Assembly: GCA_963745025.1 (NCBI GenBank)
Contig: CAVUWD010000005.1
Location: 96,001-160,000, forward strand
DNA: 64,000 nt
Direction of reading: 5' to 3'
Source of the DNA: an uncultured delta proteobacterium
GTDB taxonomy: Bacteria; Desulfobacterota; Binatia; JACPRU01
This document shows, one piece after another, positions 1 to 19,447 of this stretch. Below the pieces are notes generated by a model. It was given only the letters and a program-made list of their open reading frames with translations, ran no database searches and was not told the DNA's origin. Position 1 is the stretch's first letter. Every line of letters starts with the position of its first letter. Both the position numbers and the translations under genes were made by a program.

Positions 1-158
1 TTTCCGCTCTCGGCTGAGAGCGCCGTGCGCCGAACCGCACGTCGCCCTCCGTTTCACTTGCCGATACCCAGCCGAGCCGGCGGTGCCCGAGGTCGTTCGC
101 CGGCGGCGTCTGCCGCGGCGGCGGACCGCGAAATAGGCCGGAGAGCCGCGTCAACGCG

Positions 159-3100
159 CTACGCACCATCGACTGCGGGCGCTGACACCTCTCCTTCCCA
201 GTCCACGTCTTCGAGCAGGTACGCGAGCATCCGCGGATCGTCGTTGTCGGGTAGCTCTCGCTTCGGGATCAGCCACCGCGATGCGCGGATGTGGGCGTCG
301 ATCACGGATGCCGCTTCCGACACCGGAACGCGAATCTCGAACTCTCCCGGCCCGAAGCGGAATTCGCCGGCGGCGCGACCGTCGACGCAGACCTTGAGGG
401 TCTGCGGGCTGAGCGACGGGTAACATTCGGGAACCCTGACTCGCAGCCGCAAGCCGTGCCCGCGCCGGGGCAAGACGAGGTGCAGGTTCGGCGAGGCCCA
501 GCGGTCGGAATACCACTGAGCCGCCGAATCCGCCTTGCAGTACCTGGGGATAAACGTTTCGTAGCCGCGCGTCTGGACGAACGCGTCGAAGTACTCGGGA
601 TCGTGGCGCTGATGCGGCACCCCCGCCCGCAACTCGCCCGCCTGGGTCGCGTCGAAGAACCGGCGCAGCACGGCCTCGGTCTCTTCGACGCTGGCGTCGC
701 CGCTGCCGCGGAACGAATTCTCCCCGTGTATCCGATGGAAGTAGAGACGATCCGGGACGAACGTCGGGCTGGTGTATCGCAGGGCCGTCAGCAGGAAATC
801 CCAATCGTAGCACAGGCGCAGATCGCGGAAGCCGCCGACCAGGTCGAACAGCTCGCGGCGGAAGAACAGGTTTCCCGTGGACAGCGCGACGTTGAAATCG
901 AGCAGTGCATATTCGAGCCGCGGATATCGCAGGGCTTCATCGACTTTCGCCCGTAGACGATCCGCGTAGGGATCGCCTGGCGAGATCGCCGAGCCTTCCG
1001 CATCCACCAGATCCACCCCCGAGAACGACAGCGAGGAATCCGATCCGTCGAGCGCTCGGTGAAGCCGCGCGAGCCGCTCGGGATGATAAGAATCGTCCGA
1101 GTTCAGCACCGCGATGAAATCGCCCGCCGCGCTCTCCACGGCGCGATTGAGCGCCGCGGCGGGCCCCGCGTTGTGCTGCGCGACGATCTCCACCGGCAGC
1201 TTCGGGTTGCGCTCCGCAAACGACTTCGACAGCGCGAGAGTCGCATCGCTCGACCCGTCGTCGACGACCACGATCTCGAAATCGGACCACGTCTGGCGCA
1301 GCACCGATTCGAGCGCAAAGGAGACGTACGCCGCGTGATTGTAGGCCGGCACGACGACGGAGATCGCAGGGCGCGGCTTCCCGTACCGCCGCGACCGCGC
1401 CGTCACCTTGCGCAATGCCGCGGCGGTCGCGTTCAGGTACGCATAGCCGTAGCGCTTGTCCGGCTCGAGATGCGCTCCCTCGGCCCATTCGTTCCACGAG
1501 TTGACGAACACCAGCCGCCGGCTCGGCGGCTGATGCGCGACGGCGTCCTCGCATGCGCTCTGCAGCCATTGCTGATAGAGCCGCGGGCTGGCGCCCACGT
1601 ACACGTTGCCCAGTGCGCCGCGCCGCGGCGTGTTGTCCCAACCCGGCATGACGGCGCGGAACAACGGATACGCTTCTGGCCTCGATTGCATCTTGTCGAG
1701 CACGACGTCTTCGTAGTGGTACGCCGATCCCTCGTATCGCGGGTTCAGCAGCGCGAGCGAACCCGAGACCTGGCTCGCGCTCGTGCCGTGCGGCGGGAAC
1801 TCCACGGCGGCGTCGAATCCGAGCGGCACGGGGTCTTTCAGGCCGAAGGTCTGCGCGGCGACCAGGAACAGATCCCCGATGCCCGACTGGCGGCAATGAT
1901 GCCGCCAGCGCTCCACGGTGTCGCGCGGCTCGGGCAAGATGTCCGCTCGATAGACGACGAGCAGCGGCCTGCCCTCCACGCGGATGTAGCGCGGATCGCG
2001 GAAGATCGCCTCCACGTCGCGGATGAACGCGAAGTCGCTCTCGGGCGAATGCTCCTGGCCGAGCAGCAACTCCTGCTCCGCGCCGTCCCACCGTCGCGTC
2101 CAGTTCTCGTTCGCCCAGCAGATGCAGAACGGGCGATCGAGCCGCGGATTGTCGAGGAGCTGGCGCAGCGGGCGGTCGAGAAGCTTTCTGCCGTTGAACC
2201 AATAATAGTGATAACAGAACGCGTACACGCCGTAGTGCGTGGCGAGCTCCAACTGGCGGGCCTGGATCTCCTCACCGACCCGCAGATCGTAGAAGCCGAG
2301 CTCGCCCGGCAAGTGAGGCTGATAGTGGCCGACGAACTGCGGCTTCGCGCGCGTGACGTTGGTCCACTCAGTGAATCCCTTTCCCCACCATTCGTTGTTC
2401 TCGGGGATGGGATGAAACTGCGGCAGATAGAACGCGATCAGGCGCACCGTCGTCTCGCCGACCGCCGTCGCGGAGATGGGTTGATAGTCGGCGGAGGCTT
2501 CGGCGTAGAGCTCGCGCACCAGGTCCGCGTCGAGCAGATCGCGATCCGCATGGGCTGCGCCGGTGGCGGACCGGGGACGAGACGCTTCGCGGACAGCGGT
2601 CGACGGCTGCGGATCCGAGCGCGCTTGCGGCGGCGGGCCCAGCGCTTCCGAGATCGGCGCCGCAGCGGAGCCGGGGTCCGGCGTGGAGGGCGCGCCTCCG
2701 TTGCGGTCGAGGAACTTCGCCGCCGATCCCTTGAGGGCGCCGTAGAGAGCGCGGAGCGCGCTGCCCTCTGGGGCGACCCGGTCGAGGCGGCGTCGCAAGG
2801 ACTCGAGCGCCTGCCACCCCGCGGTGCCGCGGAACACGGACAGCTGCTCGTCGAGCCGAGCAACGATCCGTCCCCGCTCCTCGGCGCGCTCGATCTCCTC
2901 TTCGAGGCGGCGCGCCAGCTCGAGCCGCTCTCGCTCCGTCTCGTCGAGCCGGCGCTCGAGGATCCGCTGCCTGGTGTCGAGCATCGTGCGGACCTGCGTC
3001 AGCTCCCATCGCGCCCTCGCAGCGTCTCGCGCAGATTCACCAAGCCGCATCTCGAGCATTCGCCGCTTGTTGTCGCGGTTCGACCGCAGCTGCTCGACCT

Positions 3101-3938
3101 GGCGCCCGGGGTCGGCGAGCTCCAGCGCGCGCTCGCCGAGCCGTCGCTCGAGCTGCGAGACGTGCCCCTGATACCGCGCTGCGAGCAGCGATTCGGCGCG
3201 GCTCGCGCTGGGCAGCGCGGCGACGACGAAGAACTGATACGTGGTCGCCAGCGGGTCGCTTCGCAGCTCGGCCACCAGTTGCTCGGGGTATTTCGTGAGG
3301 TCGAGGCGCGTCTCGGTCTGATCGATGCCGCGCACGATGCGCGTCTGGCTTTGGATGGAGTACCCGGCGTCGCGGAACAAGCTCTGCACCGCCGTTTCGT
3401 CGAAGAAGCGGATGTGATCGCGGTCGAGAAGCCCGGTGTCCGTGTAGCGAAATGCGCCGGACAGAAGCGCGAGCCGCACCGCCCCGTGGGCGACGTTCGG
3501 GATCGACGCGAGGAGCCGCGCCTGCGGCGCCAGCACCGCCGCCAGCCGTCGCAGCACCTCGCCCGGATTGCGCAGATGCTCGAGGACGTCCAACGCCAGG
3601 ACGACGTCGAACCGTTCCGGGAAAGCCGCCGCGAAATCGAACGACTCGAGATCGGCGACGACGACCCTCTGGCAATGCGGCCGTGCGACGTCCGCGGCGG
3701 CCGGGTCGGCGTCCACCCCCCACACCGAGCAGCCCCGCGCCGCGAGAGCCGACGCGACGACGCCCGGCCCGCAGCCGACGTCCAGCACCTTGCTGCCGAC
3801 CGGGACGCTCAGCACGGCCAGGGTATGCGCGTTGTTGAGGTCGTTCAGGTTCAGCGGGACGAGGTATCGCAGCGCCGAAGCCTTGTCCGCACTGCCCGTC
3901 TGCTCGGCGCGCCGTTTTCGTACAACCGCTGGTTTCAA
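159..3938 (-). CDS. Multidomain glycan biosynthesis protein: class I SAM methyltransferase + coiled coil + WbsX/GH99-like domain + GT2 glycosyltransferase + C-terminal beta domain
   Basis: VLDVGCGPG SAM motif and DVLEHL; E/R/L-rich heptads about aa 255-400; IAFYLPQFHPIPENNEWWGKGFTEW...FVNSWNEWAEG (WbsX); ISVVVPAYNH...VVDDGSSD...LNSDD (GT2). TTG start uncertain. Confidence 0.9.
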   Translation of the reverse strand: MKPAVVRKRRAEQTGSADKASALRYLVPLNLNDLNNAHTLAVLSVPVGSKVLDVGCGPGVVASALAARGCSVWGVDADPAAADVARPHCQRVVVADLESFDFAAAFPERFDVVLALDVLEHLRNPGEVLRRLAAVLAPQARLLASIPNVAHGAVRLALLSGAFRYTDTGLLDRDHIRFFDETAVQSLFRDAGYSIQSQTRIVRGIDQTETRLDLTKYPEQLVAELRSDPLATTYQFFVVAALPSASRAESLLAARYQGHVSQLERRLGERALELADPGRQVEQLRSNRDNKRRMLEMRLGESARDAARARWELTQVRTMLDTRQRILERRLDETERERLELARRLEEEIERAEERGRIVARLDEQLSVFRGTAGWQALESLRRRLDRVAPEGSALRALYGALKGSAAKFLDRNGGAPSTPDPGSAAAPISEALGPPPQARSDPQPSTAVREASRPRSATGAAHADRDLLDADLVRELYAEASADYQPISATAVGETTVRLIAFYLPQFHPIPENNEWWGKGFTEWTNVTRAKPQFVGHYQPHLPGELGFYDLRVGEEIQARQLELATHYGVYAFCYHYYWFNGRKLLDRPLRQLLDNPRLDRPFCICWANENWTRRWDGAEQELLLGQEHSPESDFAFIRDVEAIFRDPRYIRVEGRPLLVVYRADILPEPRDTVERWRHHCRQSGIGDLFLVAAQTFGLKDPVPLGFDAAVEFPPHGTSASQVSGSLALLNPRYEGSAYHYEDVVLDKMQSRPEAYPLFRAVMPGWDNTPRRGALGNVYVGASPRLYQQWLQSACEDAVAHQPPSRRLVFVNSWNEWAEGAHLEPDKRYGYAYLNATAAALRKVTARSRRYGKPRPAISVVVPAYNHAAYVSFALESVLRQTWSDFEIVVVDDGSSDATLALSKSFAERNPKLPVEIVAQHNAGPAAALNRAVESAAGDFIAVLNSDDSYHPERLARLHRALDGSDSSLSFSGVDLVDAEGSAISPGDPYADRLRAKVDEALRYPRLEYALLDFNVALSTGNLFFRRELFDLVGGFRDLRLCYDWDFLLTALRYTSPTFVPDRLYFHRIHGENSFRGSGDASVEETEAVLRRFFDATQAGELRAGVPHQRHDPEYFDAFVQTRGYETFIPRYCKADSAAQWYSDRWASPNLHLVLPRRGHGLRLRVRVPECYPSLSPQTLKVCVDGRAAGEFRFGPGEFEIRVPVSEAASVIDAHIRASRWLIPKRELPDNDDPRMLAYLLEDVDWEGEVSAPAVDGA

Positions 3939-4130
3939 TACCGATGGCTCCGGCCGAGGATGCGACGAAACGTTGCCATCTTCCCGCGCTCCTGTAAAGG
4001 GCGCCCGTCGGTGCGCTGCGAGGGCGCGCGACTCAGGAAGCGATGAACAAGCGGCGGTTCTCCGCTTCCCGGTTGAGGACGAGGGCAGTGCGCCTCTGCG
4101 ACTCGCAGCGCGCGAGCAAGCTCGACCACA

Positions 4131-4259
4131 CTAGAGCTCCCGGTGGCCGAGCCGGCGGACGCGAAGGCAGAAGGCGACGTCTTCGTCGCCGTTGAAGTAG
4201 AGCGGGTCGAATCCACCGCAGCGCTCGAAGATCTCGCTCTTCGTCAGCAGGCATGCCCA
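4131..4259 (-). pseudogene. GT2 glycosyltransferase internal fragment (about 42 aa)
   Basis: Manual translation: ACLLTKSEIFERCGGFDPLYFNGDEDVAFCLRVRRLGHREL*, the GACLL..GGFD..ED.D.CLR segment of GT2 enzymes; no start or rest of gene. Confidence 0.65.
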
Positions 4260-4295
4260 CGTTTCATCCTTCAGGGTGCGTATGCGAATCCAAAC

Positions 4296-4560
4296 TCAGA
4301 AGTCGATGGCCAATCCGATGAGCGGGCCCCGGAACTGGAGGTCGATATTTGCCGCGCCCTTCGACTTGTTGAAGTCGAGCAGGCGGTAACCCGCCGCCAG
4401 GTGGAGGGTGGTGTTCTTGGGCTTCCAGGGGCAGCTCTACTGGAAGGCCGAACTATATCCCAGCAGAAGTCGGATCCCGTCTGGAAGGGAGCCGCGTCGC
4501 CGCGGAAGGACCAATCGGCCTTGTCGAAGAGGTTCAAGGTGATGCGCCCGCCGTGGATGG
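4296..4560 (-). pseudogene. C-terminal fragment of an outer-membrane beta-barrel protein (frameshift and internal stop)
   Basis: GGRITLNLFDKADWSFRGDAAPFQTGSDFCWDIV / AFQ*SCPWKPKNTTLHLAAGYRLLDFNKSKGAANIDLQFRGPLIGLAIDF*; amphipathic strands and a terminal Phe. Confidence 0.55.
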
Positions 4561-4827
4561 CCGTTTCAAAGCCCCTCTCCCTTGGGGCTATCGTCGCAGC
4601 GCGGGCCTCGATGGCAACGGCTCGCGACGTTGCAGCGACAACGGCTCGCCGACTCGCTCGCGCGGAATCTCGAACGACTCGGATTGAAGCGCCGACCGAA
4701 GCAGCTTCCGACGTTGCCGTCGTCGGAGACCCGCGGTCGTAACGTCGCCTGCGTCAGGTGCTTGCGGGTACGGCGGCCGTAAAAGCGACGAGTTTCCTGT
4801 CTTAAGCGGCACTGGTACAATTGCCCC

Positions 4828-7524
4828 ATGACGCGTCGCGACGGTTGCGAGGTGCTGAGCTTCCGGGCGCGAGGGCTCTACCCGAACCTGCGGTGCATGC
4901 TCGCCAGCCTGTCCGAGCAGAGTCGACGGCGCCCCGCAGACGGTAAGTTGCCCGGCGACGTGGCGTCCGTGGTCGAGTGCACGGTTCGTGAGGATGGCCG
5001 CACGCGGAGCATCGAGCTGCCCGTAGGCGCTGCCGACCTGCTCGCGTTGCGCCACTCCGATCAGCCCGCCGCGCTTCACCACCTCTCCCTCATCCTCCGT
5101 GCCCAAAAGGGGGACGAGGCCAGCCGGAATGAGCTCCAAAGCATTGCCCAGAAGCGGTTTCGCAAGCTGCAGGATCGCCTCGACCGCCTCGAGCAGTTGG
5201 ATGACCGGTATCTGATCTTATCCAGCGACCAGCAGCAGTACCCCTCCGAAACGGCGAGCCACAAAGGGTCGATGCTGCTCCGGCTCAGCCAGCAGGGGTA
5301 TCCGGTTCCGGATTTCGTCATCCTCACCGCCGATGCCTATCCAGAGAGCGAGCAGCGCCTGAAGCAGCACGTCACCCGCGCCGTCGAAGCGCTCGAAGGC
5401 CTAGTCGGGCGTCGGCTCGGAGCACCGACGGAGCCCCTTGTGCTCGCCATGCGCTGCGCAATGCCTCAGTACTACCCAGGCTTGATGCCGACCTACCTCA
5501 ACGTGGGCATCACGGAGAGGACGCTGCCTGGCCTGGAGAGCCTTTTTGGCCGTCGTGCGTCCAATATGATGTACCTGAATAACCTCAAGAACCTTCTCGT
5601 CGCCTTGGGCGAGGAGACAGGCACGGTCCTCCGCAAAGCGGACGAGACGCCACCTGAGGACGCGGAGGAGTTCCTCGTCCGGCGCGTCGAAGAGGCATCG
5701 GCGAGGGTGCGCAAGCACGATCCCCGATTGCTTCAGGACGGATTCCATCAGGTTGCCTTCCTCGCTTTGGAGGCCTACCGCAACTTCGAGAGCAACGCCG
5801 ATCTCGTGGCCACCCTTTCGCGCGGCACGATCCAACGCCCGGCGATCATCATGCAAATGATGGTCTGCTCGGTCAGGGAAGAGAGGTCCTATGTGGGTGT
5901 GCTTTACAGCCGCAACCCGATGACCGGCTCAGGGTGCGAGATCGAGACCGCGATGGGGACCTTCGGGGAAGACATCATGACGGGGTCGGTGGAGACGACG
6001 CGGACCGACTTCGATGGTCCCGAGGAGATCCGCGAGGCTTTCCCTTCCGTGTTCAGCTTCATGCCCCTCGTACCCAAGCTGGAGCAGGAGTTTCAGTTCC
6101 CGGTCACCATCGAGTTTGCGGCCGAGGCCGGCGCCTACACCGAGCTCTTCGCGCTCCTCCAGCTCAACCAGACCGGCATGACCGGCCGCGCTGCCTTCAT
6201 CTCGGCAGTGGATCTTCACAAGGCCGGTACCATCTCCCGGAAGCGCATCCTCGAGCTGATCCAGCCGTACCACGTCAAGCAGATCGAGTCCGACACCATC
6301 GATACCCGCTCCTTCCAGGATCTCTACCGCTTCGGCGACGGCATCTCGATTCTCCCTCGCGCCGCCATCTGTGCCCGCGTTTACTTCTCTGCCGAGGAAG
6401 CCCTGAACGCCAAGCGGCGGGGCGAGAGCGTCTGTTTCTGCAAGCCGACATTCGCGCCCACCGACACCGTCGTCATGCAGGAGGTCGACGCCATCCTCAG
6501 CCTGAGCGCCGCCGCCATCCACGTGGTCACGATCTGCCAGAGCTTCGGCACCCCGGCCCTCTTGAACCTGGAGCGGGATGGCATCGCGTTGAAGCCCGAG
6601 CGATGCCTTGTCAACGCCGACGGGGTGGAGATCCACGAGGGAGACTTCGTGACCATCTCGTCGCGCCGGCAGGCGTTATTCAAAGGCAAGGCTCGGTTCG
6701 AGCCCGCCCGCTTCATCCGCTACCTGCAGGGCGAGGAGCCTGAGCTTACCGAGGCGGAGCGGAAGGCCTTCGAGGACATGGCCTATGCCTACCGCTACTA
6801 TTTCAAGCTCGTCAGTACACTCAGGCAGGAGCAGGTGACGAGCTTGTGGGAGCTCATCCGCCTGGTCAACCTCGAACTCCGCGGCAAAGAGGAGGAAGCC
6901 CGACAGTTCGTGCGGGCGTGGTGCGATAGTCACGAGCAGTTCTACGTCGACGAGGTGCTGCGCAGCGAGCTCGGCGATCACCTCAATCAGCACAGAGTGT
7001 TCGAGATGCTGACCGTGGATCAGAAGATCCGCTTCTTCGCCAAAGCTCTGGATCGTTGCGAGCGCGAGAAGATGTTCGGCTACGCCGCCGGCGCCTTCAT
7101 GCTTGGACGGTTCATCTCGACTCCCCTGCCGGTTGCCTTCTGGCGCTCATTCGGGCCAAGCAAGACCGCTCTCCTGCTGAACGAGTGGCTGCTTTTCGAG
7201 AAGTACATGCACGTGCTGCACAGCGTGGGCGAGCGGAAAATCAACCGCGCCCGGAAGCGCATCCTCAGCGAAGGGCTGCCCGAGATCCAGTTGGCACCGC
7301 CGGCGTTGACGGTGCTTGTCCCTTTGAAGCTGGCGGCAGCCGACATCACGTCTGTTCGCAAGTCGGTTCCCCAGTGGTGCGACCCGCAGCTCCCCAAGCT
7401 CCTGGACCTTCTCGAGAGGCCCTACAAGGCGTTCTTCGACTTCAAGGCGCCCTGGTCGCGCGGTAAGCTGGAGGCCATCTGCGACGAGGCCGGCCTCAAG
7501 ATGCCCGGCCCAGACGACCGGTAG
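4828..7524 (+). CDS. Divergent pyruvate,phosphate dikinase-like protein (ATP-grasp + phospho-His swivel domain, novel C-terminal domain)
   Basis: SHKGSMLLRLSQQGYPVPDFVILT, PLVLAMRCAMPQYYPGLMPTYLNVG, GVLYSRNPMTG, GEDIMTG and AILSLSAAAIHVVTICQSFGTP align to PPDK N-terminal and central domains; PEP/pyruvate barrel motifs absent. Confidence 0.85.
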   Translation: MTRRDGCEVLSFRARGLYPNLRCMLASLSEQSRRRPADGKLPGDVASVVECTVREDGRTRSIELPVGAADLLALRHSDQPAALHHLSLILRAQKGDEASRNELQSIAQKRFRKLQDRLDRLEQLDDRYLILSSDQQQYPSETASHKGSMLLRLSQQGYPVPDFVILTADAYPESEQRLKQHVTRAVEALEGLVGRRLGAPTEPLVLAMRCAMPQYYPGLMPTYLNVGITERTLPGLESLFGRRASNMMYLNNLKNLLVALGEETGTVLRKADETPPEDAEEFLVRRVEEASARVRKHDPRLLQDGFHQVAFLALEAYRNFESNADLVATLSRGTIQRPAIIMQMMVCSVREERSYVGVLYSRNPMTGSGCEIETAMGTFGEDIMTGSVETTRTDFDGPEEIREAFPSVFSFMPLVPKLEQEFQFPVTIEFAAEAGAYTELFALLQLNQTGMTGRAAFISAVDLHKAGTISRKRILELIQPYHVKQIESDTIDTRSFQDLYRFGDGISILPRAAICARVYFSAEEALNAKRRGESVCFCKPTFAPTDTVVMQEVDAILSLSAAAIHVVTICQSFGTPALLNLERDGIALKPERCLVNADGVEIHEGDFVTISSRRQALFKGKARFEPARFIRYLQGEEPELTEAERKAFEDMAYAYRYYFKLVSTLRQEQVTSLWELIRLVNLELRGKEEEARQFVRAWCDSHEQFYVDEVLRSELGDHLNQHRVFEMLTVDQKIRFFAKALDRCEREKMFGYAAGAFMLGRFISTPLPVAFWRSFGPSKTALLLNEWLLFEKYMHVLHSVGERKINRARKRILSEGLPEIQLAPPALTVLVPLKLAAADITSVRKSVPQWCDPQLPKLLDLLERPYKAFFDFKAPWSRGKLEAICDEAGLKMPGPDDR

Positions 7525-7533
7525 GTCGCGACG

Positions 7534-9972
7534 TCAGCTGTTGCGTGAGGACTGCTCGGGAGCGGCCTGATCATTGCCGCCGTACAGGAACCCGCGGTCC
7601 ACCTTGGGCTCCAGCTCGCCGAGTACGTCAGGGAGCTCCCCGCCTCCCCGTGCCGCCAACAGCCGGCCCATGGCGAGGGAGACGGAGAGAACCGCATTCA
7701 TTCCCAGGTTCGCCTTGCGCTGCATGACGGCGATCCGCTCCGCCACGGGCGCGTCGCGCGCGATCTTGCCGCGCTTGACTGCCAGATCCAGCTCCAACTC
7801 GAGAAGCTGACGATCGATGTGGACAAGGCTCTTGAACTCCGAGATGCGCTTTCCCATGAAGCGCGGTGCAATGACCTCCTCGACATTGGCCACGGCGTTG
7901 AGACAGCCCTTGCCGTCGTAACGCTTCGCCCTCATCCACAGCCCCGCCAGCTCGTCGTCGTTCTTCGCCGATATCGACTCCGCCCGGAGCCCGTCCCGGA
8001 AGTGGTAGACCTTCTCGGCCTCGTCATAGCGGAAGAGTTCGGGGTACTTCCGCGTGATGGGGCCGGCCTCGATCATGCTGTCGACGAGGTGGATGGCCTC
8101 GTCGGTTCCCGCCGAGGTCCCGAGGGGCGTCGCCGCCGTGAACTTGGTGCCGTTGTCGAGCCGGACGACTACCCCGACGGTAGGAATCCCCGCGTTGGTG
8201 GGCTCCTCATGGGCGCTGATGTCGCTGATGATGAGGTCGCCAGGCAGCCCCCGCGATGAGCGCACACCCTTCTCGGCCATGTGGATCAACTCCACGATGC
8301 GACCGTACTTGATGAGCCGCTCGGTGTTGCTGCCGCCTCCGCACTTGAGCCCGAGCGCGCCCACCGCGAAGGCGATGTCGGCTTCCATGACCTCGTTGGG
8401 CGATTTGGATCGATGGGAGACTACAAGCGCGAGGCCGTGCTCCTTGGCGGCGCGGGTGGCCAGCAGCGTCTCGCTGAGCGTGCCGATCTGGTTCGCCTTG
8501 ATGAGGGCGGTGTTGATGAGCCCCTCTTCGGCAGCGTGGATTATGGACGTGTCCTTGGTGGTGACGAGGTCGTCGCCGATGATCAGGATCTCATCGTCCA
8601 GCTCGGCCATGAGGCGCTTCCAGCCCTCGGGGTCGTCCTCGGAGAAGGCATCCTCCAAGGAGACGATGGGGTACTCGCGTATCCATCGCTTGTAAAGGTC
8701 CAGGAGTTCGTCGGTCGTCATCACCCGGGGATCCTCGGCGCGCCAGAAGAGGTACTTCCCGATGGACTCCTTCTCTCCGGTCTCCTCGCGGTAGGCCAGG
8801 CTGAGCTCACTGGCGGCCGGGTCGAGCGCCAGGCAGACATCGCGGTCGGGAACGAAGCCACACTCCTCGATGGCCTGCACCGCCACTTTGAGGGCGCGCT
8901 CCTCGGGGATGAGATCGCCCACACGGCGGGCGTAGGATGCGACGACGCCTCCTTCAAGACCGACGCCCACGAAGTTGAGCCCTTCCGAGTCCTGGATGAT
9001 CTGAATGACCCGGCTCTGGAGCGCGTTGGTCACGCGCTGGGCCTCGATGTAGTCCCTGGCTGTGAGGGGGATGAACATCAGCTCCTGGAAGCTGAGGTTG
9101 CCGCCCATGTCCTCCGTGTGTCTCCCGCCCATGATGGAGTTCCTGAACTCCCATGGCGCGAATACGAGCCTGCCATCGGGCAGCTCGACCTCCTGGAGGC
9201 GGTGGATCTGGAGCTTGCGCTTGATGCGCACAGACAGGGCGGTGTCGCGCAGCGTCTCCGAATCACCTCCGCTCTTCGCGGCTATCTCATGCACGGCCTT
9301 GGCCTTGCGGGCTGCCTCTCCCTGTCGCTCGCGAAACGCCCTGTACTTGCCTGGATCCGCAAGCAGGAAGTCGAACAACGCCACCGCGCCTACGGTGAAG
9401 AGCAGGCGTCCCCCAACTACCATGGGTTCGATATTCCCCATGCGGCCGAAGGCCATGAGGGCGACACCGGAGGGGAAAGCGGCCAACGCCAGCCACTTGC
9501 TGGCGTTGGGGCCGGCGGCCGAGACGGCGAGGTTCTGGGCTTTTACGGCCGGATGGTAGCTGCCAGCCTCCTTGGTGACTCCCATGGCGGCGCCCCAGGG
9601 TATCTTGAGGAACAGCTCGAGATAGAAGAGCCACCTGGCCCAGAACCCCTCCGCCATCCTGGCTTGGGCCGGGCCCAGGAACTCGGGGCGGAGGTTGTTG
9701 GTGCGCACGGCCGCGAGGTAGTGACCCATCTCATGGAGCGCAATGTTGGCATGCCAGGCCGCGTACCAGATGGCGGCTGAGATGACCACCTCAATGCTGA
9801 AGAACATCTGCCGGGCGACATCCGCCCGCGAGCTGATCGACTCCGAGATGCTCAGTAGAGAGGTGAGAAATGCCGCGTGAAAGGAGACCAGCTTGTGGTT
9901 GGCGATGACCCAACCCCGGTCCAGCCGCGGCCAGCCCCCTTCCTCATGGCTCTGAGAAGCAAACAAGTTCAC
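7534..9972 (-). CDS. M50/S2P-like membrane domain fused to a circularly permuted enolase
   Basis: N-terminus has TM helices, HEMGH and SAAGP; barrel motifs LALDPAASE, YPIVSLEDA, GDDL, LIKANQIGTLSET, SHRS; enolase N-terminal capping domain (GIPTV, PLGTSAGTDEA, YDGKGCLNAV, LGMNAVLSVSLA) lies at the C-terminus. Confidence 0.9.
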   Translation of the reverse strand: MNLFASQSHEEGGWPRLDRGWVIANHKLVSFHAAFLTSLLSISESISSRADVARQMFFSIEVVISAAIWYAAWHANIALHEMGHYLAAVRTNNLRPEFLGPAQARMAEGFWARWLFYLELFLKIPWGAAMGVTKEAGSYHPAVKAQNLAVSAAGPNASKWLALAAFPSGVALMAFGRMGNIEPMVVGGRLLFTVGAVALFDFLLADPGKYRAFRERQGEAARKAKAVHEIAAKSGGDSETLRDTALSVRIKRKLQIHRLQEVELPDGRLVFAPWEFRNSIMGGRHTEDMGGNLSFQELMFIPLTARDYIEAQRVTNALQSRVIQIIQDSEGLNFVGVGLEGGVVASYARRVGDLIPEERALKVAVQAIEECGFVPDRDVCLALDPAASELSLAYREETGEKESIGKYLFWRAEDPRVMTTDELLDLYKRWIREYPIVSLEDAFSEDDPEGWKRLMAELDDEILIIGDDLVTTKDTSIIHAAEEGLINTALIKANQIGTLSETLLATRAAKEHGLALVVSHRSKSPNEVMEADIAFAVGALGLKCGGGSNTERLIKYGRIVELIHMAEKGVRSSRGLPGDLIISDISAHEEPTNAGIPTVGVVVRLDNGTKFTAATPLGTSAGTDEAIHLVDSMIEAGPITRKYPELFRYDEAEKVYHFRDGLRAESISAKNDDELAGLWMRAKRYDGKGCLNAVANVEEVIAPRFMGKRISEFKSLVHIDRQLLELELDLAVKRGKIARDAPVAERIAVMQRKANLGMNAVLSVSLAMGRLLAARGGGELPDVLGELEPKVDRGFLYGGNDQAAPEQSSRNS

Positions 9973-10157
9973 CGGCGCAGCAAGGTCGTCAGGTCAGACG
10001 CCGGGGAGCCTAGCAGAAGCGAACGAGGTGCGTCAAAATAGCCCCCGTGCGACTGTTTGCGTTCTGGATCCAGCCCGGCGTCATCGCTCAACTGATGCAG
10101 TCGGGAGATTCGTAGCAAATACCAAATATCACAGCGCAGAGCCGGCTTTGCTTATCT

Positions 10158-10310
10158 GCGGCAAGTGGAATTGTCCCGGAGGTGGTGCGTGTGCTCACCG
10201 CGCTGCAACCACTGCAGGTGTCGCCGGAGACGCCCGTGTTCACCAATACCACCGGAGATCCGATCGAGCCGAAGGCGTTCTCGCGGCACTGGTACGACTG
10301 CTTGCGGGGG
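10158..10310 (+). pseudogene. Tyrosine integrase internal remnant
   Basis: RQVEL/PEVVRVLTALQPLQVSPETPVFTNTTGDPIEPKAFSRHWYDCLR resembles the segment before the HxxR box of phage integrases; one frameshift, truncated both sides. Recognised from memory, not by search. Confidence 0.5.
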
Positions 10311-10458
10311 GATAGATCCTTTCTCCCCATCATCCCCATCATCCCGAGCCGGTTGACGAGCGCCTCATGCACCCCGTAAAAGCGGGCGTTACGTGGGGGA
10401 GATGGGATTGGGTGAGCGTCTGCCAACGCAGGTTCTGTAGCTTTCGGCCCCTCTAGCC

Positions 10459-11505
10459 ATGCATGAGCGCCAGCGCGCAACGATGAACGCCGCAGCGGCG
10501 ATCACCCTCGTGGTCGTCGGATCGTCAGCCTGTGCGGTGCCGTCCGGCGGGGGTCGCGGCGGGCCCCCGGCGGCCACCGCCGTCGTCGCCACCATTCCGC
10601 TCAGCAACTACGGTACCGACGTGGCGGTGCGTCCCGACGGCACGCGCGCCTACGTGCCGCTTCAGACCGGCAGTGTCCTCGCCCTCGACCTAACCAGCAG
10701 GCAGGTCGCCAGTACGATCACGACGGACGGGCGACCTTCCGCGATCGCCCTCACCAGCGACGGCGCGCACGCCTACGTGACGGACTTGACCGCTCAGTCC
10801 CTCTTCGTGCTCGACACGACCAACGACAGCCTGGCCAAGAGCATATCGATCGGAACGATCGCGCGGCCGACCCGGACGCCGGCGGTGGCGGTCAGCCGTG
10901 ACGGCCGGTGGGCATATGTTACCAACGCCACGGTCATGGACGACCATCTCCTCGTCATCGACACCGCGACCAACACCGTCGTAGGCAACCATTCCCTGGA
11001 CGTCCATCCCGTGGGAATCGCGGTGAGCCCGGACGGACGGCGCCTGTACGTCGCCGGGTGCAAGTTGTCGTGCGTCGACGGCGCCCTGCTCGTCCTCGAC
11101 GCGGCGAGCGCCAACGTCGTCTCCAGTATCCCTCTGCAGGCGGCTCCCGCCGGCTTCGTCCTGGCCCCCGACGGCTCTCGTGCGTACGCCTCGACCGGGC
11201 TTTCGGGAACGGTTCTGGCCATCGATCTCACCACCGGCACCGTCACGACGATCCCCGTCGACGCCGAGCCTCTCGGCGTTGCCATCGACCCGCGCGGCGT
11301 CTTCGTTTACGTGACCTGCTACGGCGCGAGCGACGTAGCCGTCATTGACACCCGCACGAACACGGTGGTCTCGACGGTCCCCGTGGCCAATGAACCGCGG
11401 GCGATCGCCGTGAGCCCCGATGGCCGGCTTGCCTACGTGACGCACTCTTCACCGACCTGTTCGGTGATCGACCTGCAGCGCGTCACGGGAGGCCCCGGCA
11501 CGTGA
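10459..11505 (+). CDS. YVTN/YncE-family beta-propeller lipoprotein
   Basis: Repeated P.GIAVSPDG..AYVT / VIDT.TNTVV units; signal peptide ending GSSAC. Confidence 0.85.
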   Translation: MHERQRATMNAAAAITLVVVGSSACAVPSGGGRGGPPAATAVVATIPLSNYGTDVAVRPDGTRAYVPLQTGSVLALDLTSRQVASTITTDGRPSAIALTSDGAHAYVTDLTAQSLFVLDTTNDSLAKSISIGTIARPTRTPAVAVSRDGRWAYVTNATVMDDHLLVIDTATNTVVGNHSLDVHPVGIAVSPDGRRLYVAGCKLSCVDGALLVLDAASANVVSSIPLQAAPAGFVLAPDGSRAYASTGLSGTVLAIDLTTGTVTTIPVDAEPLGVAIDPRGVFVYVTCYGASDVAVIDTRTNTVVSTVPVANEPRAIAVSPDGRLAYVTHSSPTCSVIDLQRVTGGPGT

Positions 11506-11631
11506 CGGGCGGCGCGTCGCCCGAGTGACGGTCCCCCCCGTCCTCGGACCGTCGGCGTACGTATGGACGCGTCGTGCGCCGGAAACGGTTTATCTGAATT
11601 GCCCGATCCACGGAGGCTCTGAGGTGTGGCC

Positions 11632-12378
11632 ATGACTTGTGCTTCGTGCGGCGTGAGAAACGTCGATTTCGCTTCCACGTGCTTCTCATGCCGACAGCCG
11701 CTCGGGAAGCTCTCGGCGGTCACCGCTTCCGCTGCCCCACGTGAAGCCCTCGAGGCGCGGAAATCGGCGCCCCCCGGCATGACCCGCAGCGGCGCGGATG
11801 CGCCGCGCGTGCCGCGCGGCGCCATCATGCCCCTGCTGCTCGTGGCCGCGGTCGCTTGGGTCGTTGCGCGCGGTCTTCCGCTGCGCATGAGGTCGGTTTC
11901 GCCTCATTCGGCCGACGCGCCCGCGGAGCCAGCGAAGGAGGTTCGCTCGCTCCCGCTCACCGAGCCCGCTCCGCGGGAGCCCGCGGCTCCCCTGCCCGAG
12001 GAGCAGAACGGCTTCCGGCTCAGCCACTTCGAGTGGGGCGTTCCCGCTGCGGGACCGGGCAGTAGCTTCCGCACCGGCGAGACGGTGAGCGGCCGCAGCG
12101 AGATTCAAGGCTTCGGTGTGACCGCGGACGGCAAGATCGACGTGAGCGTCGCGTTCGCGTTCCGCGATTCCATGGGCAAGCTCGTAGAGCCGATCTCGCC
12201 GACGGTGCTCCGCCAGCCCATGGAGTCGGAGACGCTGTTCACGAGCTTCGACTACGCGATCCCGGTCGACGGGCCTACGGGTAAGTACGACCTCGAGATG
12301 GCGGTCGACGACGCCGTGAGCACCCGCTCGGCGCACTTTCACCGTAAGATCACCGTCGAAGCGGCGAAACCTCAATAG
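11632..12378 (+). CDS. Zinc-ribbon + single TM + extracytoplasmic Ig-like domain protein
   Basis: CASCG...CFSC at the N-terminus, hydrophobic segment LLLVAAVAWVV, C-terminal P.G.Y.L...V.D beta-sandwich pattern. Confidence 0.65.
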   Translation: MTCASCGVRNVDFASTCFSCRQPLGKLSAVTASAAPREALEARKSAPPGMTRSGADAPRVPRGAIMPLLLVAAVAWVVARGLPLRMRSVSPHSADAPAEPAKEVRSLPLTEPAPREPAAPLPEEQNGFRLSHFEWGVPAAGPGSSFRTGETVSGRSEIQGFGVTADGKIDVSVAFAFRDSMGKLVEPISPTVLRQPMESETLFTSFDYAIPVDGPTGKYDLEMAVDDAVSTRSAHFHRKITVEAAKPQ

Positions 12379-12575
12379 CCGTAAAAACGGACGTTCCGAG
12401 GCATCACAAAACGGCCAAAACGGCGGCGGTCCAACGGGTCGCCTCTTGGCGTCTTGTCCGGTCTGCCTACTCGGTAGGACCGGTCTACCTGCCTGTGATA
12501 ACAACGTCGTCGCTAGCCCGAGTGCGGCGGCGCAGCGCGCAGTCGACAAAACCAAATCAAGAGGAAGGATCTCAT

Positions 12576-15079
12576 ATGAACGCAGTCAAGCAGGTCGTCG
12601 CGATAGCGCTTTCAGGTGTCGCGTTTGCGCTTCCTTCCTCATCCTGCATCGCGCAGCAAGTTACCGGTGAGTTGGGTTCGCCCAGCGCCACCACCACGAT
12701 CAGCGGAAAACAACTTCCGCCGCCCGATCCGAAGTTCGGCGGGGTGATCAAGGAGAAGGCCTCGGAGTCGAAGGCGTGGTGGCCGCCGCGCGTCGTGCCG
12801 CCGAAGGGCGCGCCCAACGTGCTGCTCATCATGACGGACGATGCCGGGTTCGGCGCGCCGAGCACGTTCGGCGGCGTCGTCCCGACCCCGGCCTTGGATC
12901 GCATCGCGAACAACGGGCTGCGGTACACGCAGTTTCACTCCACGTCGCTGTGCTCACCGACGCGGGCGGCGTTGATCACCGGACGCAACCATCACGTGGC
13001 CGGCTTTGGGGTCGTGGGCGAAGCGGCGACGGGGTTCCCGGGTTACGACTCGATCATCAGGAAGGATACCGGCACGATCGGCACGATCCTGAAGGAGAAC
13101 GGGTACGCGACCTCGTGGTTCGGCAAGGACCACAACACGCCCTTCTACCTGGCGAGCCAGGCCGGGCCGTTCGATCAATGGCCCATCGGGATGGGCTTCG
13201 AGTATTTCTACGGGTTCGTCGGCGGCGACACCAGCCAGTGGCAACCGAACCTGTTCCGCAACACGACCGCCATCTATCCCTTCCAGGGGAATCCCGGCTG
13301 GAATCTGACCACGGCGATGGCCGATGACGCGATCCAGTACATGAAGCAGCTCAAGGAGATCGCGCCCGACAAACCGTTCTTTGTCTATTACGTACCGGGC
13401 GGCACACACGCGCCGCATCATCCGACGCCGGAGTGGATCAAGAAGATCAGCGACATGCACCTGTTCGACGGCGGCTGGAACAAACTGCGCGAGACCATCT
13501 TCGCCAACCAGAAACGGCTCGGCATCATGCCCGCCGATGCCAAGCTGACGCCGTGGCCGAAGGATCTGCCGGAGTGGGATTCGCTCAGTTGGGACGAGAA
13601 GAAGCTCTTCATCAAGCAAGCCGACGTCTACGGGGCGTACCTCGCGTACACCGACCACGAGATCGGCCGGGTGATCCAGGCCGTCGAAGACCTGGGCGAA
13701 CTCGACAACACGCTTGATCATCTACATCAGCGGCGACAACGGCGCGAGCGCCGAAGGCATGCTCAACGGGACACCGAACGAGTTCACCACCTTCAATGGT
13801 GTTCCCGTGCCGGTCAAGGATCAGTTTCTCTGGTACGAGTTCTGGGGATCGGAACGGACCTTTCCGCACTTTGCGGCGGGCTGGGCGTGGGCGATGGACA
13901 CGCCGTTCAAGTGGACCAAGCAGGTGGCGTCGCATTTCGGCGGGACGGCCCAGGGCGTTGGCCATGTCCTGGCCCGGCCACATCAAGGACGTGGGCGGCA
14001 TCCGCAACCAGTTCCACCACGTCATCGATATCGTGCCGACGATCCTCGAAGCGACCGGCGTCTCTGCGCCCGAAACGATCGACGGCATCAGGCAGCGCCC
14101 GATCGAAGGCGTGAGCATGGCGTACACGTGGGACAAGGCGAACGCCAACGCGCCCACCAAACACACCACGCAGTACTTCGAGATGCTCGGCAATCGCGCC
14201 ATCTATCACGACGGTTGGGTGGCGGCGACGACCCCGGTGACCATCCCGTGGGAACTGAACACCGCCACGCCTCCGGACGTGATCACCGGCTACAAGTGGG
14301 AGCTCTACAACATCAAAGAGGACGTCACCGAGGCCAACGATCTCGCGGCCAAGATGCCGGACAAGCTCAAGCAAATGCAGGACGTCTTCTACGCCGAGGC
14401 GAAGAAGTACGACGTGCTGCCGCTCGACAACTCGACGCTCGCGCGCTTCCTCACGCCTCGTCCGAGCGCAACTGCGGGACGGAAGGTCTTCACGTATTCG
14501 GGCGAATTGACCGGCGTGCCGGCCAGCGCCGCCCCGAACATCCTGGACAAGTCCTACACCATCACCGCCGAGGTCGAGATTCCCGAGGGCGGCGCGGAAG
14601 GCATGATCGTCACCGAGGGCGGTCGCTTCGGCGGCTACGGCCTGTTCCTGAGCAAGGGCGAGTTCGGAATCGGCCGCGGCAAGGTGGTGTTTCTCTACAA
14701 CCTGCTCGATCTCAAGCGGACGGCCTGGGAAGGGCCGGAGCTGAGCGCCGGCAAGCACACCATCGTGTTCGACTTCAAGTTCGACGGCCCCGGTCTCGGC
14801 AAGGGCGGCACGGGCGTGCTGTCCGTGGACGGCAAGGAAGTGGCCAAGAACTCCATGGAGCACACCACCCCCATCATGTTCCCCGAAGACGAAGACTTCG
14901 ACGTCGGGCAAGACACGCGCACCCCGTTGGCGCTCATCGAGTATCGCTACGATTGTCCGTTCAAGTTCACGGGCAAGATCGACAAGCTGACCTTCGACCT
15001 CGGCCCGGCGCAGTACACGGAAGCGGAGCGCAAGCAACTTCCGGTCATTGCCGACCGGGTCGCCCGCGCGAAGGACTGA
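12576..15079 (+). CDS. Secreted arylsulfatase (formylglycine type), split by two frameshifts (about 13715 and 13958)
   Basis: PNVLLIMTDD, CSPTRAALITGR, GKDH; continues in ORFs 13714 (ISGDNGAS) and 13796 (QFHHVIDIVPT, WELY); RBS GAGGAAGG before ATG 12576. Confidence 0.85.
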
Positions 15080-15263
15080 GCGTTACCGGCGCGCACCGCT
15101 GTCGGCGAAGCTGCCACCTGACGCCTCCGGAGACAGCGGCGGCGCTAGCTGATGCCATCCGGCGCACACGTCGGCGCCGGAAACGGCGGGATATGCGGCT
15201 CGGACGTGGCGCGCGCTTTGCATACTCCATCGTGGGAGGCTCTGACCCAAGGTCCGGGCCGCA

Positions 15264-16202
15264 ATGACTATGAGTTCGCACACGCCAGCGGCCGAGCTCA
15301 AAGGGACCGTATTCGACATCGAGCGCTGTGCGATCTACGACGGACCGGGCATCCGAACGCTCGTCTTCCTGAAGGGATGTCCGCTTCGCTGCCTCTGGTG
15401 TGCGAATCCCGAATCCCAGCGTCGCGCCCCGGAGCTCATGTTCCACGAGAAGGATTGCACTCCGTGCGGGCGATGCATCCCCGCGTGTCCCGAACACGCG
15501 CTCTCGATCGGACCGGACGAAGCGTTCTCGATCGAATGGGCGCGCTGCACGAATTGCGGTGCCTGCTGCGACGTCTGCCCGCCGCGCGCCCTTCGCATGG
15601 CCGGCAGGGAGATGACCGTCGGCGAAGTCGTCGAGGAGATCGAGAAGGACCGGCTGTTCTACCGCCGCTCCGGCGGAGGCGTGACGCTCGGCGGAGGCGA
15701 GCCGACCCTCCAGGCGGCTTTCGCGGCCGCGCTCCTCCGGGAGCTCCGGCGCCGCTTCCTCGACACGGCGATCGAGACGTGCGGCTACGCGCGGCCCGAG
15801 GCGCTGCTGAGTGTCGTCGAGCACTGCGACCTCGTCTACTTCGACGTCAAGTTCCTGGATCCCGAGACGCACGCCGCGCTGACGGGCGTCCGGAACGAGC
15901 TCATCCTCGAAAACCTCGAACGGGTCGCGGAGCGGACGTCCGTCGTCGTTCGGATCCCGGTCGTCCCCGGCTGCACGGACCCGGACCTCAACATCCGCCG
16001 GACGACCGAGCTCGTCGCCCGCCTCGGTCCGAACGTCCAGCGGATCGAGCTCCTGCCGTATCACAATTTTGGCGAGCCGAAGTACCGGCGGCTCGGCCGT
16101 CCGTATCCCTTGCCCGATACCGTCCGCCCGGACGGCGATCGGCTCCTCGATCTCCGCCACATCGTCGAAGGCTACGGTGTCAGGGCAGCGGTCGGTCACT
16201 GA
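15264..16202 (+). CDS. Glycyl-radical enzyme activating protein (radical SAM with ferredoxin insert)
   Basis: DGPGIRTLVFLKGCPLRCLWCANPE; CTPCGRCIPAC and CTNCGACCDVC; GGVTLGGGEP; ELLPYH. Confidence 0.95.
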   Translation: MTMSSHTPAAELKGTVFDIERCAIYDGPGIRTLVFLKGCPLRCLWCANPESQRRAPELMFHEKDCTPCGRCIPACPEHALSIGPDEAFSIEWARCTNCGACCDVCPPRALRMAGREMTVGEVVEEIEKDRLFYRRSGGGVTLGGGEPTLQAAFAAALLRELRRRFLDTAIETCGYARPEALLSVVEHCDLVYFDVKFLDPETHAALTGVRNELILENLERVAERTSVVVRIPVVPGCTDPDLNIRRTTELVARLGPNVQRIELLPYHNFGEPKYRRLGRPYPLPDTVRPDGDRLLDLRHIVEGYGVRAAVGH

Positions 16203-16232
16203 CGCCGCTCCCCCCAGAAAGCGAGGTCCCCG

Positions 16233-18734: not shown

Positions 18735-18817
18735 GGTCGCGGGCGGAGGTCAGCAGCGCGATCAAGCCCAAAACCGGGATGCTTACGAGCGAGTGTGACC
18801 TCATTGAAGCGACTTCC

Positions 18818-19237
18818 TCAACACCCGCCGAGGCGGCGACCGTTCAGATTGATCGTCATGCTGCCGTCGTCGGAGGTGAACTTGATCGCTCCGGAGTAGG
18901 TATCGGGGGTGTCCCGGGTGATCTCGCCGTGGCCGGTCATCGCCGGCTCCGAACACGTCACGGTCCAGGTGGCTGTCTTGCCCGCTATCTTGAAGTCCGA
19001 GTTCCGGCACGTTTGCCGCTCGTCCGCTCCGCCGGGGGGTTCCTTCCACTCCTTCGCGGCGCAGACCTTCATCGTTTGCGCCGGTATTTCCATCGGCATT
19101 TCCTCCATCGCCATCTTGGAGGTCACTTCCCAGAGGTCCTTCTGCTCGTTCGCCGTGGCCGGCTCGGCAGGAAGCTGATTCGGCACCGCGAGTAGCGCCG
19201 TGAACGTTGCAAGCAGAAGCAAAGAACGCGAAGCCAT
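18818..19237 (-). CDS. DUF3617-like secreted protein
   Basis: Signal peptide; LWEVTSKM...C...C...W...C...G...GRRLGGC pattern; RBS AAGGGGG. Confidence 0.7.
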   Translation of the reverse strand: MASRSLLLLATFTALLAVPNQLPAEPATANEQKDLWEVTSKMAMEEMPMEIPAQTMKVCAAKEWKEPPGGADERQTCRNSDFKIAGKTATWTVTCSEPAMTGHGEITRDTPDTYSGAIKFTSDDGSMTINLNGRRLGGC

Positions 19238-19447
19238 GAGATCCCCCCTTCATGAAACGGTTTGTTTGCCTGAAGACTACTCCTCGCTTCGAAGCGGGTG
19301 CAATCAAGCTGCAGCATCGCCGCGCCGCGCGCGCGGAGCGCGGCCGCGCCGGCGTCGATCGCTTCGTCGATCGGAAACGATTCGTGCGAAGACGCGCCCT
19401 GGGAGCTACGGAAGCTCTGATCAAGTTCTACTACGATCCGACGCCGC

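Follow-up and report, generated by a model that had tools for sequence, protein, structure and literature searches.

Few enzymes have folds and active sites as well studied as those of enolase and pyruvate phosphate dikinase (PPDK), both of which are textbook examples. In the dikinase family, which includes PPDK, phosphoenolpyruvate (PEP) synthase and rifampin phosphotransferase, a phosphoryl group travels from an ATP-grasp domain to a phospho-His swivel domain and then to an acceptor at a third domain. Among the site-2 proteases (S2P), SpoIVFB with its CBS domain and RseP with its PDZ domains are examples that bear attached sensor domains. We analyzed a locus where relatives of these three protein types lie together. 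It is found in a 64,000-nucleotide stretch of contig CAVUWD010000005.1 (positions 96,001 to 160,000, assembly GCA_963745025.1) from an uncultured delta proteobacterium assigned to Binatia. This whole stretch is called the window, and coordinates refer to it unless another locus is named. The locus consists of two genes. P0001 encodes a relative of the dikinases, and P0002 encodes an M50/S2P-like membrane domain followed by a circularly permuted enolase. We think it reasonably probable that the two genes work as a single, functionally coupled enzyme system and are inherited together as a cassette. This view rests on the architecture of the proteins, the conservation of their catalytic residues, the linkage of the genes and the existence of fused forms; from these we infer the mechanism proposed below.

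Two rebuilt relatives of PEP-node enzymes

The original prediction, made from the DNA alone, described two convergent genes derived from PEP-node enzymes with stops 9 bp apart. The open reading frames (ORFs) and the gap bear this out.

4828..7524, + strand: P0001, PPDK-derived dikinase relative (898-aa ORF)
7525..7533, no strand: gap between the convergent stops (9 bp, read from the sequence)
7534..9972, - strand: P0002, M50-like membrane domain and permuted enolase (812-aa ORF)

P0001 ends with TAG at 7522-7524, and P0002 ends with TGA on the reverse strand at 7534-7536. The spacer holds an 8-bp palindrome, GTCGCGAC, and is too small for a terminator hairpin between the genes; 12 related loci even have overlapping 3' ends. 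GC content is 62-65% over the gene pair and 65-70% in the flanks, which is no strong anomaly. The prediction had allowed that these might be the only enolase and PPDK genes of the genome. Profile searches of the same genome found a canonical eno on contig 6 (651 bits, above the cut-off) and a canonical ppdK on contig 13 (1232 bits). Since both sit on other contigs, the pair is not the housekeeping set and we rejected that reading.

Both genes had also been called heavily re-engineered, and the domain analysis agrees: P0001 matches PPDK in part only, and P0002 carries its permuted enolase behind an M50-like domain. P0001 is divided as follows (AF2, AlphaFold2).

4828..5232, + strand: N-terminal domain, aa 1-135, beta-sheet and helices (family-specific; AF2 secondary structure)
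5236..6327, + strand: ATP-grasp nucleotide-binding domain, about aa 137-500 (alignment to the genome's own PPDK)
6340..6702, + strand: phospho-His swivel, about aa 505-625 (H565 alignment and Foldseek)
6520-6522, + strand: codon of His565 (aligned with the His of PPDK 'TSH')
6730..7521, + strand: all-helical C-terminal domain, aa 635-898 (AF2 model)

The PPDK model TIGR01828 matched P0001 over profile positions 15-514 of 865 with 119 bits, against a family cut-off of 843. Positions 515-865, which represent the PEP/pyruvate TIM barrel, were unmatched, and the whole-protein cut-off was not reached. Residues 141-656 aligned with the genome's own PPDK at 23% identity (BLASTP), and a profile of 111 P0001 family members retrieved from the PDB only PPDK chains, over residues 137-621. 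The AF2 model (pLDDT 85.7, pTM 0.77) returned PPDK as the first Foldseek match, followed by rifampin phosphotransferase (RPH) and PEP synthase, and it matched the isolated phosphoryl-carrier domain of PPDK (2fm4) with a TMt of 0.85. His565 is the counterpart of the 'TSH' His in the genome's own PPDK. It is invariant in the 111 family sequences, as are K146, R209, Q343, E429 and Q445 of the ATP-grasp domain, and 'SAAAIH' in P0001 replaces the 'GG.TSH' of PPDK.

The two ends of P0001 are particular to its family. Residues 1-135 gave no Pfam match to E<=10; the family alignment shows a conserved motif around R15/G16. The C-terminal domain (about residues 635-898) had no relative in Pfam, among PDB sequences or by Foldseek. 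Its best Pfam score at E<=10 was an insignificant one to chorismatase-N (E 0.25), and an Atlas structure search gave scores of at most 0.86, to be read as leads only. Many of its polar residues are invariant in the 111 sequences, including D717, H718, R761, N785, E786 and G801. When a profile of this domain was run against 1.84 billion representative proteins, only 115 matched (E<=0.001). Among the matches listed, proteins of 800-920 aa bear the domain near the C-terminus, with the exception of a 1550-aa protein that has PPDK_N; many of the remaining matches are short proteins, probably fragments of the P0001 family. There were four weak, longer matches, two with PPDK_N and two without any Pfam family. 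Among the PEP-utilising dikinases, P0001 is a soluble protein with a helical, family-specific domain in place of the PEP/pyruvate barrel.

P0002 combines a membrane domain with an enolase whose two parts occur in reversed order.

9328..9972, - strand: N-terminal segment and M50/S2P-like membrane domain, aa 1-215 (PF02163)
9721-9735, - strand: HEMGH, aa 80-84 (invariant in the alignment)
9157..9327, - strand: charged linker helix, aa 216-272, between membrane domain and enolase barrel (low-confidence model; variable sequence)
8287..9156, - strand: enolase barrel, aa 273-562 (PF00113, E 2.9e-54)
7603..8238, - strand: enolase cap (N-type) domain, about aa 579-790, with two insertions (PF03952 at 682-774)

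Pfam places Peptidase_M50 at 77-239, Enolase_C at 273-561 and Enolase_N at 682-774. By BLASTP, the barrel (273-562) aligned with residues 141-406 of the genome's own enolase at 36% identity, and residues 681-766 aligned with canonical enolase 53-114. In the profile search of the genome, positions 1-51 and 53-95 of the enolase model TIGR01060 matched P0002 downstream of the barrel. The order of the Pfam, BLASTP and TIGR01060 matches shows that the enolase is circularly permuted, with the barrel before the cap. P0002 scored 240.1 bits against TIGR01060, where the curated cut-off is 300, and it departs from the cap-before-barrel order of that model.

We aligned 23 P0002 members that carry five phylum-level labels. 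The barrel residues E297, E340, D384, E440, D467, K492, H520-R521-S522 and K543 are invariant, and so is the cap loop 'PLGTSAGTDEA', including S620 at the position of the canonical Ser. All positions aligned to the metal, acid/base and phosphate-binding residues of canonical enolase are invariant; we take their roles to be those known from the yeast and E. coli enzymes. The enolase domain thus appears to keep the complete catalytic set and is predicted to hold an active site. Near the phosphate site there are also family-specific features, namely R284, K523 and 'KCGGG'.

The membrane domain is similarly constrained. H80-E81-x-x-H84 is invariant in sets of 23 and 16 sequences and also in the fusion family described below; A153-G154-P155, D201 and D206 are invariant, and an N-terminal segment (aa 17-39) is near-invariant. 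The stretch 'FDFLLADPG', with invariant D201, D206 and G208, resembles, and is not identical to, the 'LDG'-type motif whose Asp supplies the third zinc ligand of M50 proteins from a later membrane helix. PF02163 scored 26.1 bits on the whole protein and 28.0 bits on the isolated domain (gathering cut-off 27.2), and it matched 20 of the 23 family members at E<=0.01. No solved S2P was retrieved when a profile of the membrane domain was searched against PDB sequences. The full-length AF2 model, built from the 23-row alignment, was poor (pLDDT 60.8), with linker helices at 207-233 and 238-258, and Foldseek with this model returned enolases only. P0002 is a membrane protein with a minimal M50/S2P-like domain, whose HExxH...D metal site appears intact, and its large enolase part is presumably cytoplasmic.

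Linkage of the pair, its cassette behaviour and its fused forms

Relatives of P0002 are numerous and carry generic names in databases ('hypothetical protein' at NCBI, 'enolase' at JGI, also 'PEP-utilizing enzyme'). There were 949 at E<=0.001 among the candidates scored, and the best 120 of these have 726-896 aa and the same domains. Identity is about 70% between Terriglobales and Elusimicrobia. We scanned loci with one genome per species and obtained 54, of which 50 encode M50-enolases and 4 ordinary enolases. By tblastn, 35 of the 50 M50-enolase loci have a P0001 homolog downstream, on the other strand; the loci come from Acidobacteriota, Elusimicrobiota, Binatia and 'Deltaproteobacteria' metagenome-assembled genomes (MAGs). 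Of the other 15, 4 are on contigs that stop at the gene, 8 are of the Planctomycetota or Phycisphaerae type and 3 are single cases (an additional copy in a genome that has a partner beside its first copy, a copy whose partner is on another contig, and a fusion). Both ORFs were called in 32 loci, and in every one the genes are arranged tail to tail, with a gap of at most 150 bp in 23 of these and overlapping 3' ends in 12. When the 623 ORFs of the 54 loci were clustered, the P0001 and P0002 families were the only ones found in more than 6 loci, and no further neighbour of the two-gene loci was conserved.

The two genes also co-occur at the level of genomes. In a class sample around genome G156, 4 of 201 genomes had a P0002 homolog and the identical 4 had a P0001 homolog; in a phylum sample around G158, this was so for the identical 3 of 201. 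Together, 7 of the 402 genomes had both genes and none had one alone. As the centre genomes were chosen as carriers, the independent counts are 3/200 and 2/200. The genes are adjacent in 5 of the 7 carriers, and in G158 they are on separate contigs. In a sample of the window's own phylum, P0002 was found in 1 of 151 genomes, the window's genome alone. The pair is retained over at least four phylum-level labels at 46-55% P0001 identity, which indicates long co-retention rather than one recent transfer. The prediction that the genes are unlikely to be chance neighbours is well supported by the co-localization (35/50), the convergent orientation (32/32) and the both-or-neither pattern in 402 genomes. 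We therefore rejected the chance-neighbour reading.

Comparison with the closest relatives shows what is shared around the pair. Nucleotide homology to locus L055 (81% identical) spans 4838-9963, which is exactly the two genes, and homology to L013 and L014 (87-91% identical) ends at 10038. Judging from these alignments, the gene pair behaves as a cassette. In L013, a Binatia MAG with 91% identity, the two genes are parted by a 6.7-kb insertion (10522-17225 of that locus), and about 190 bp at the junction (window 7448-7636) are present on both sides of it. The insertion encodes a canonical 443-aa enolase, a STAND-like/AAA ATPase fragment, a dynamin-family GTPase and a DUF6062 protein. In L022, a canonical enolase lies about 4 kb from a second M50-enolase copy.

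The pair had further been described as bracketed by mobile-element scars. Our searches of the flanking ORFs and for plasmids, tRNAs and second copies gave no confirmation of this: the small flanking ORFs had no Pfam match, the right-flank fragment had no second copy in the genome and no plasmid match, and no tRNA was found in window 1-20000. A candidate repeat around the pair is uncertain.

4806..4824, + strand: left copy of a 19-nt imperfect direct repeat (17/19 identical; uncertain)
10283..10301, + strand: right copy, inside the short ORF 10028-10315 (uncertain)

The repeat may be due to chance, as roughly one such pair is expected in 6.6 kb by a rough estimate. The peptide of the short ORF 10028-10315 ('...PVFTNTTGDPIEPKAFSRHWYDCL', about 10190-10300) looks by eye like a tyrosine recombinase fragment, and no search supported this.

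The most divergent locus, L057 (49% identity), revealed a fused form. Its single 2158-aa ORF (3581-10057, + strand) contains, in order, the N-terminal motif, HExxH, the permuted enolase, about 800 aa without a Pfam match, PPDK_N and, at the extreme C-terminus, the PEP-utilizers His domain. At least 262 protein clusters of about 2050 aa are related to it (E<=0.001; P0244-P0363 are listed). Among the 120 clusters listed, mostly of 2010-2350 aa, 116 have an enolase domain, and 115 of these 116 also have PPDK_N and/or PEP-utilizers; the other 4 are split forms of 1189-1293 aa with the dikinase domains alone. Relatives are encoded at 213 metagenome loci. Among the carriers are uncultured Acidobacteriota, Aminicenantes, Krumholzibacteria, Planctomycetota and others. 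In these fusion proteins HExxH, the two Asp residues and the catalytic residues of the enolase are all retained, and the His motif 'GGSTSHAA' and 'LQSR' have their canonical forms. Some members are longer, at about 2330 aa, and this sub-type matches an HD domain weakly, below the cut-off (E 5.6e-4). Loci of the fused form had no conserved neighbour; a 16-locus 'cluster 1' consists at least in part of antisense ORFs within the big gene, as the coordinates in L130 and L150 show. The two-gene and fused architectures together identify the M50-like domain and the permuted enolase as a constant core, to which a PPDK-type ATP-grasp/His module is attached in two ways. Linkage, co-occurrence and the fusion family support the idea of a dedicated two-gene module without a characterized counterpart, as had been proposed. 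The mechanisms that the prediction named as examples, namely sensing linked to intramembrane proteolysis, a PTS-like relay and a metabolite pathway, are candidate alternatives for what the module might do.

A possible phosphoryl relay and its alternatives

We favor a reading in which the pair is an ATP-driven phospho-His relay that would act at, or feed, the membrane-anchored enolase site. P0001 would be autophosphorylated by ATP on His565, as in PPDK, and the phosphoryl group would then pass from His565 to an acceptor tied to the enolase. The mechanism of the dikinase family is consistent with the Foldseek matches of P0001. Two versions of the second step can be envisaged. By the precedent of that family, where the acceptor belongs to a third domain, the acceptor could be bound on the helical C-terminal domain of P0001, and a 2-phosphoglycerate-like product would go to the membrane-anchored enolase; alternatively, the linked enolase would supply the substrate for P0001. 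In the other version, transfer would take place directly at the enolase-type Mg2+ site, which would stand in for the lost PEP/pyruvate barrel. What suggests this version is that the enolase is common to the two-gene and fused forms, and their helical regions are not. In either case, the M50-like domain would hold the reaction at the membrane, and it may contribute a hydrolytic or gating function that depends on Zn.

A bolder form of this idea is a membrane phosphotransfer machine in which the enolase Mg2+ site replaces the PEP barrel and is set on an S2P-like metal centre. We regard it as speculative and give it a low chance of being right. We are equally doubtful that such a machine mechanically couples ATP/PEP-node chemistry to an intramembrane hydrolytic or gating event and exists in three states (stand-alone, two-gene and fused). 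If true, a phosphotransfer machine of this type would span many uncultured anaerobic soil and sediment phyla.

Several observations weigh against a coupled relay. The convergent orientation means that P0001 and P0002 are not co-transcribed. Pairwise identities of P0001 and P0002 over 28 loci are strongly correlated (r=0.95), which shows co-inheritance without proving contact, as this value is expected from co-inheritance alone. In P0001, Asn447 stands where the 'LQCR' ('LQxR') motif of PPDK has an Arg, and the PPDK-type nucleotide step could be impaired by this change. This Arg (R337) is important in PPDK, and PDB titles, including that of 2dik, show that it was mutated in earlier studies. The approximately 800-aa middle region of the fusion proteins had no homology to the N- or C-terminal domains of P0001 by BLASTP or hhalign, where the ATP-grasp domain alone aligned; a shared acceptor domain is therefore not evident. 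Finally, M50-enolases also occur alone, both in the eight Planctomycetota-type loci without a partner and as proteins of about 850 aa in the fusion lineage, so the enolase core does not strictly need a dikinase. In five Planctomycetota-type genomes, the only matches of P0001 and of the split-form dikinase P0282 were to PPDK-like ORFs of 891-1002 aa, with 24-33% identity across the nucleotide domain; we take these ORFs to be ordinary PPDK genes. A predicted complex of P0002 (aa 262-812) with P0001 (aa 505-898) had ipSAE values of 0.00 and 0.01 and is evidence neither way.

The stand-alone loci have surroundings of their own. A divergent group-1 glycosyltransferase adjoins the M50-enolase in 6 of the 8 Planctomycetota-type loci (L046:2856-4046, - strand; homologs in L047-L050 and L054), and in 2 of them a multi-PAS histidine kinase of 1182-1276 aa also lies directly upstream in the same orientation (L046:4178-7726, + strand). 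Because cores occur alone, the enolase and the membrane domain probably have their own function, which the dikinase, as an add-on, would feed or regulate.

The main alternative is that P0002 is a site-2-type signalling protease whose cytoplasmic enolase domain senses 2-phosphoglycerate or PEP, and with these the carbon or energy state, in analogy to the CBS domain in SpoIVFB or the PDZ domains in RseP. PF02163 matches at threshold (28.0 vs 27.2 bits for the isolated domain) and in 20 of 23 members, all three forms (two-gene, stand-alone and fused) have HExxH, AGP, D201 and D206 without variation, and the stand-alone proteins indicate that membrane domain and enolase are a self-sufficient unit; the multi-PAS kinase upstream in two Planctomycetota loci would also fit. 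However, a mere sensor is not expected to hold all the catalytic residues of enolase invariant, and none of the forms has a conserved neighbour that could be a substrate, such as an anti-sigma factor or a sigma factor. The membrane-domain profile found no solved S2P, and the full-length model is poor (pLDDT 60.8). On balance, we consider a signalling protease rather unlikely. The same applies to the part that P0001 would play in it, which would be to tune the protease by a phospho-His-dependent modification or a local ligand, with a cleaved membrane substrate as the output.

The genes could also be biochemically independent, sharing one small mobile cassette and each acting alone. The convergent orientation, the patchy spread (1/151, 4/201 and 3/201 genomes) and the homology to close relatives that stops at the gene ends are compatible with this, as are the loci with 1-7 kb of other genes between the pair and the placement on different contigs in G158. 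Yet none of the 402 genomes has one gene alone, the pair is retained over at least four phylum-level labels at 46-55% P0001 identity, and the fusion family has both enzyme types in one polypeptide, so we judge independence to be improbable. Even less probable, to the point that we would be surprised by it, is a conflict or defence cassette, that is, an anti-phage or stress module that recruited metabolic folds as sensor and membrane effector. Its distribution would be suitable, being rare, patchy and cassette-like with variable flanks, and P0002 joins a membrane domain to an enzyme; the pair in L013 also encloses a fragment of a STAND-like ATPase and a GTPase of the dynamin family. But typical defence genes evolve fast, whereas P0002 keeps about 70% identity between phyla and its active sites are fully kept. 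No PADLOC-DB 2.0 model matches P0001 or P0002 (0 families), and no phage or integrase gene was verified nearby.

Occurrence, meaning and comparison with known systems

The remaining genes near the pair point in other directions. Upstream of P0001 and divergent from it, a 1259-aa envelope enzyme (159-3938, - strand) combines a SAM methyltransferase, a WbsX-type glycosyltransferase and a GT2 glycosyltransferase; it is not kept beside the pair in other loci. On the other side, a sulfatase gene (12495-15079, + strand) seems to be split into two overlapping frames, 12495-14114 with PF00884 and 13796-15079 with a sulfatase C-terminal-type match; a frameshift, pseudogene or assembly error could explain the split. 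It is followed by a glycyl-radical enzyme activase (15264-16202), a PFL-like glycyl-radical enzyme (16233-18734) and, on the opposite strand, an MFS transporter (19448-21247). The region 15264-21247 looks like an anaerobic substrate-utilization cluster adjoining the sulfatase.

Near-identical DNA was present in bog, sediment, soil, wetland and mine-drainage metagenomes from 17 studies (habitat word shares 0.2-0.5). In one RNA library, two contigs cover 5901-6341 with 1 mismatch each, and the other RNA matches were to short conserved enolase motifs. We see this as a weak hint that P0001 is transcribed, and DNA carry-over is possible; stretches not covered by RNA contigs carry no information. 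More broadly, hundreds of protein clusters with these architectures come from soil, bog, wetland and sediment bacteria. All carriers that we found are known from MAGs or from uncultured organisms. Once known, the reaction could reveal a new entry to or exit from the PEP node or a new class of acceptor for phospho-His dikinases; alternatively, it could show a new coupling of metabolism to intramembrane proteolysis. A sizeable set of 'dark' genes from uncultured Acidobacteriota, Elusimicrobiota, Planctomycetota and neighbouring groups would gain a function as well.

No characterized counterpart of the pair was found in a full-text literature search or in the PDB, Pfam, NCBIfam and PADLOC. The closest described systems each resemble a part of it. 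With PPDK (TIGR01828; PDB 1kbl and 1dik), P0001 shares the ATP-grasp domain and the swivelling phospho-His domain over residues 137-621; unlike PPDK, it is without the PEP/pyruvate TIM barrel and has a 264-aa helical domain and an extra 135-aa N-terminal domain. Rifampin phosphotransferase, PEP synthase and glucan water dikinase share the logic of P0001, in which an ATP-grasp domain and a His swivel serve a replaceable acceptor domain, but they differ from it in domain order and in the acceptor domain itself. In the literature searched, we found no swapped-acceptor dikinase with a genetic link, or a fusion, to an enolase or to a membrane metalloprotease domain.

P0002 keeps the barrel, the cap and the metal, catalytic and phosphate positions of enolase (TIGR01060), whereas it is permuted, carries two cap insertions and is fused behind a membrane domain. 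With site-2 proteases (M50) it shares the HExxH in a membrane helix, 'AGP', an attached soluble ligand-binding domain and probably a later Asp in a membrane helix. Unlike them, it matches the family at threshold, its attached domain is a complete enzyme and it has the extra segment at aa 17-39. The nearest relatives of the whole pair are the fusion proteins of about 2050 aa, which share with it the N-terminal motif, the M50-like domain, the permuted enolase, the ATP-grasp domain and the His swivel. They differ in being one polypeptide with a C-terminal His domain, canonical motifs and an 800-aa middle region unlike the end domains of P0001. The component folds are known; the natural and strongly conserved permuted enolase joined to an S2P-like domain, the barrel-less dikinase branch and the repeated association of the two, in pairs and in fusions, appear to be undescribed in the literature searched.

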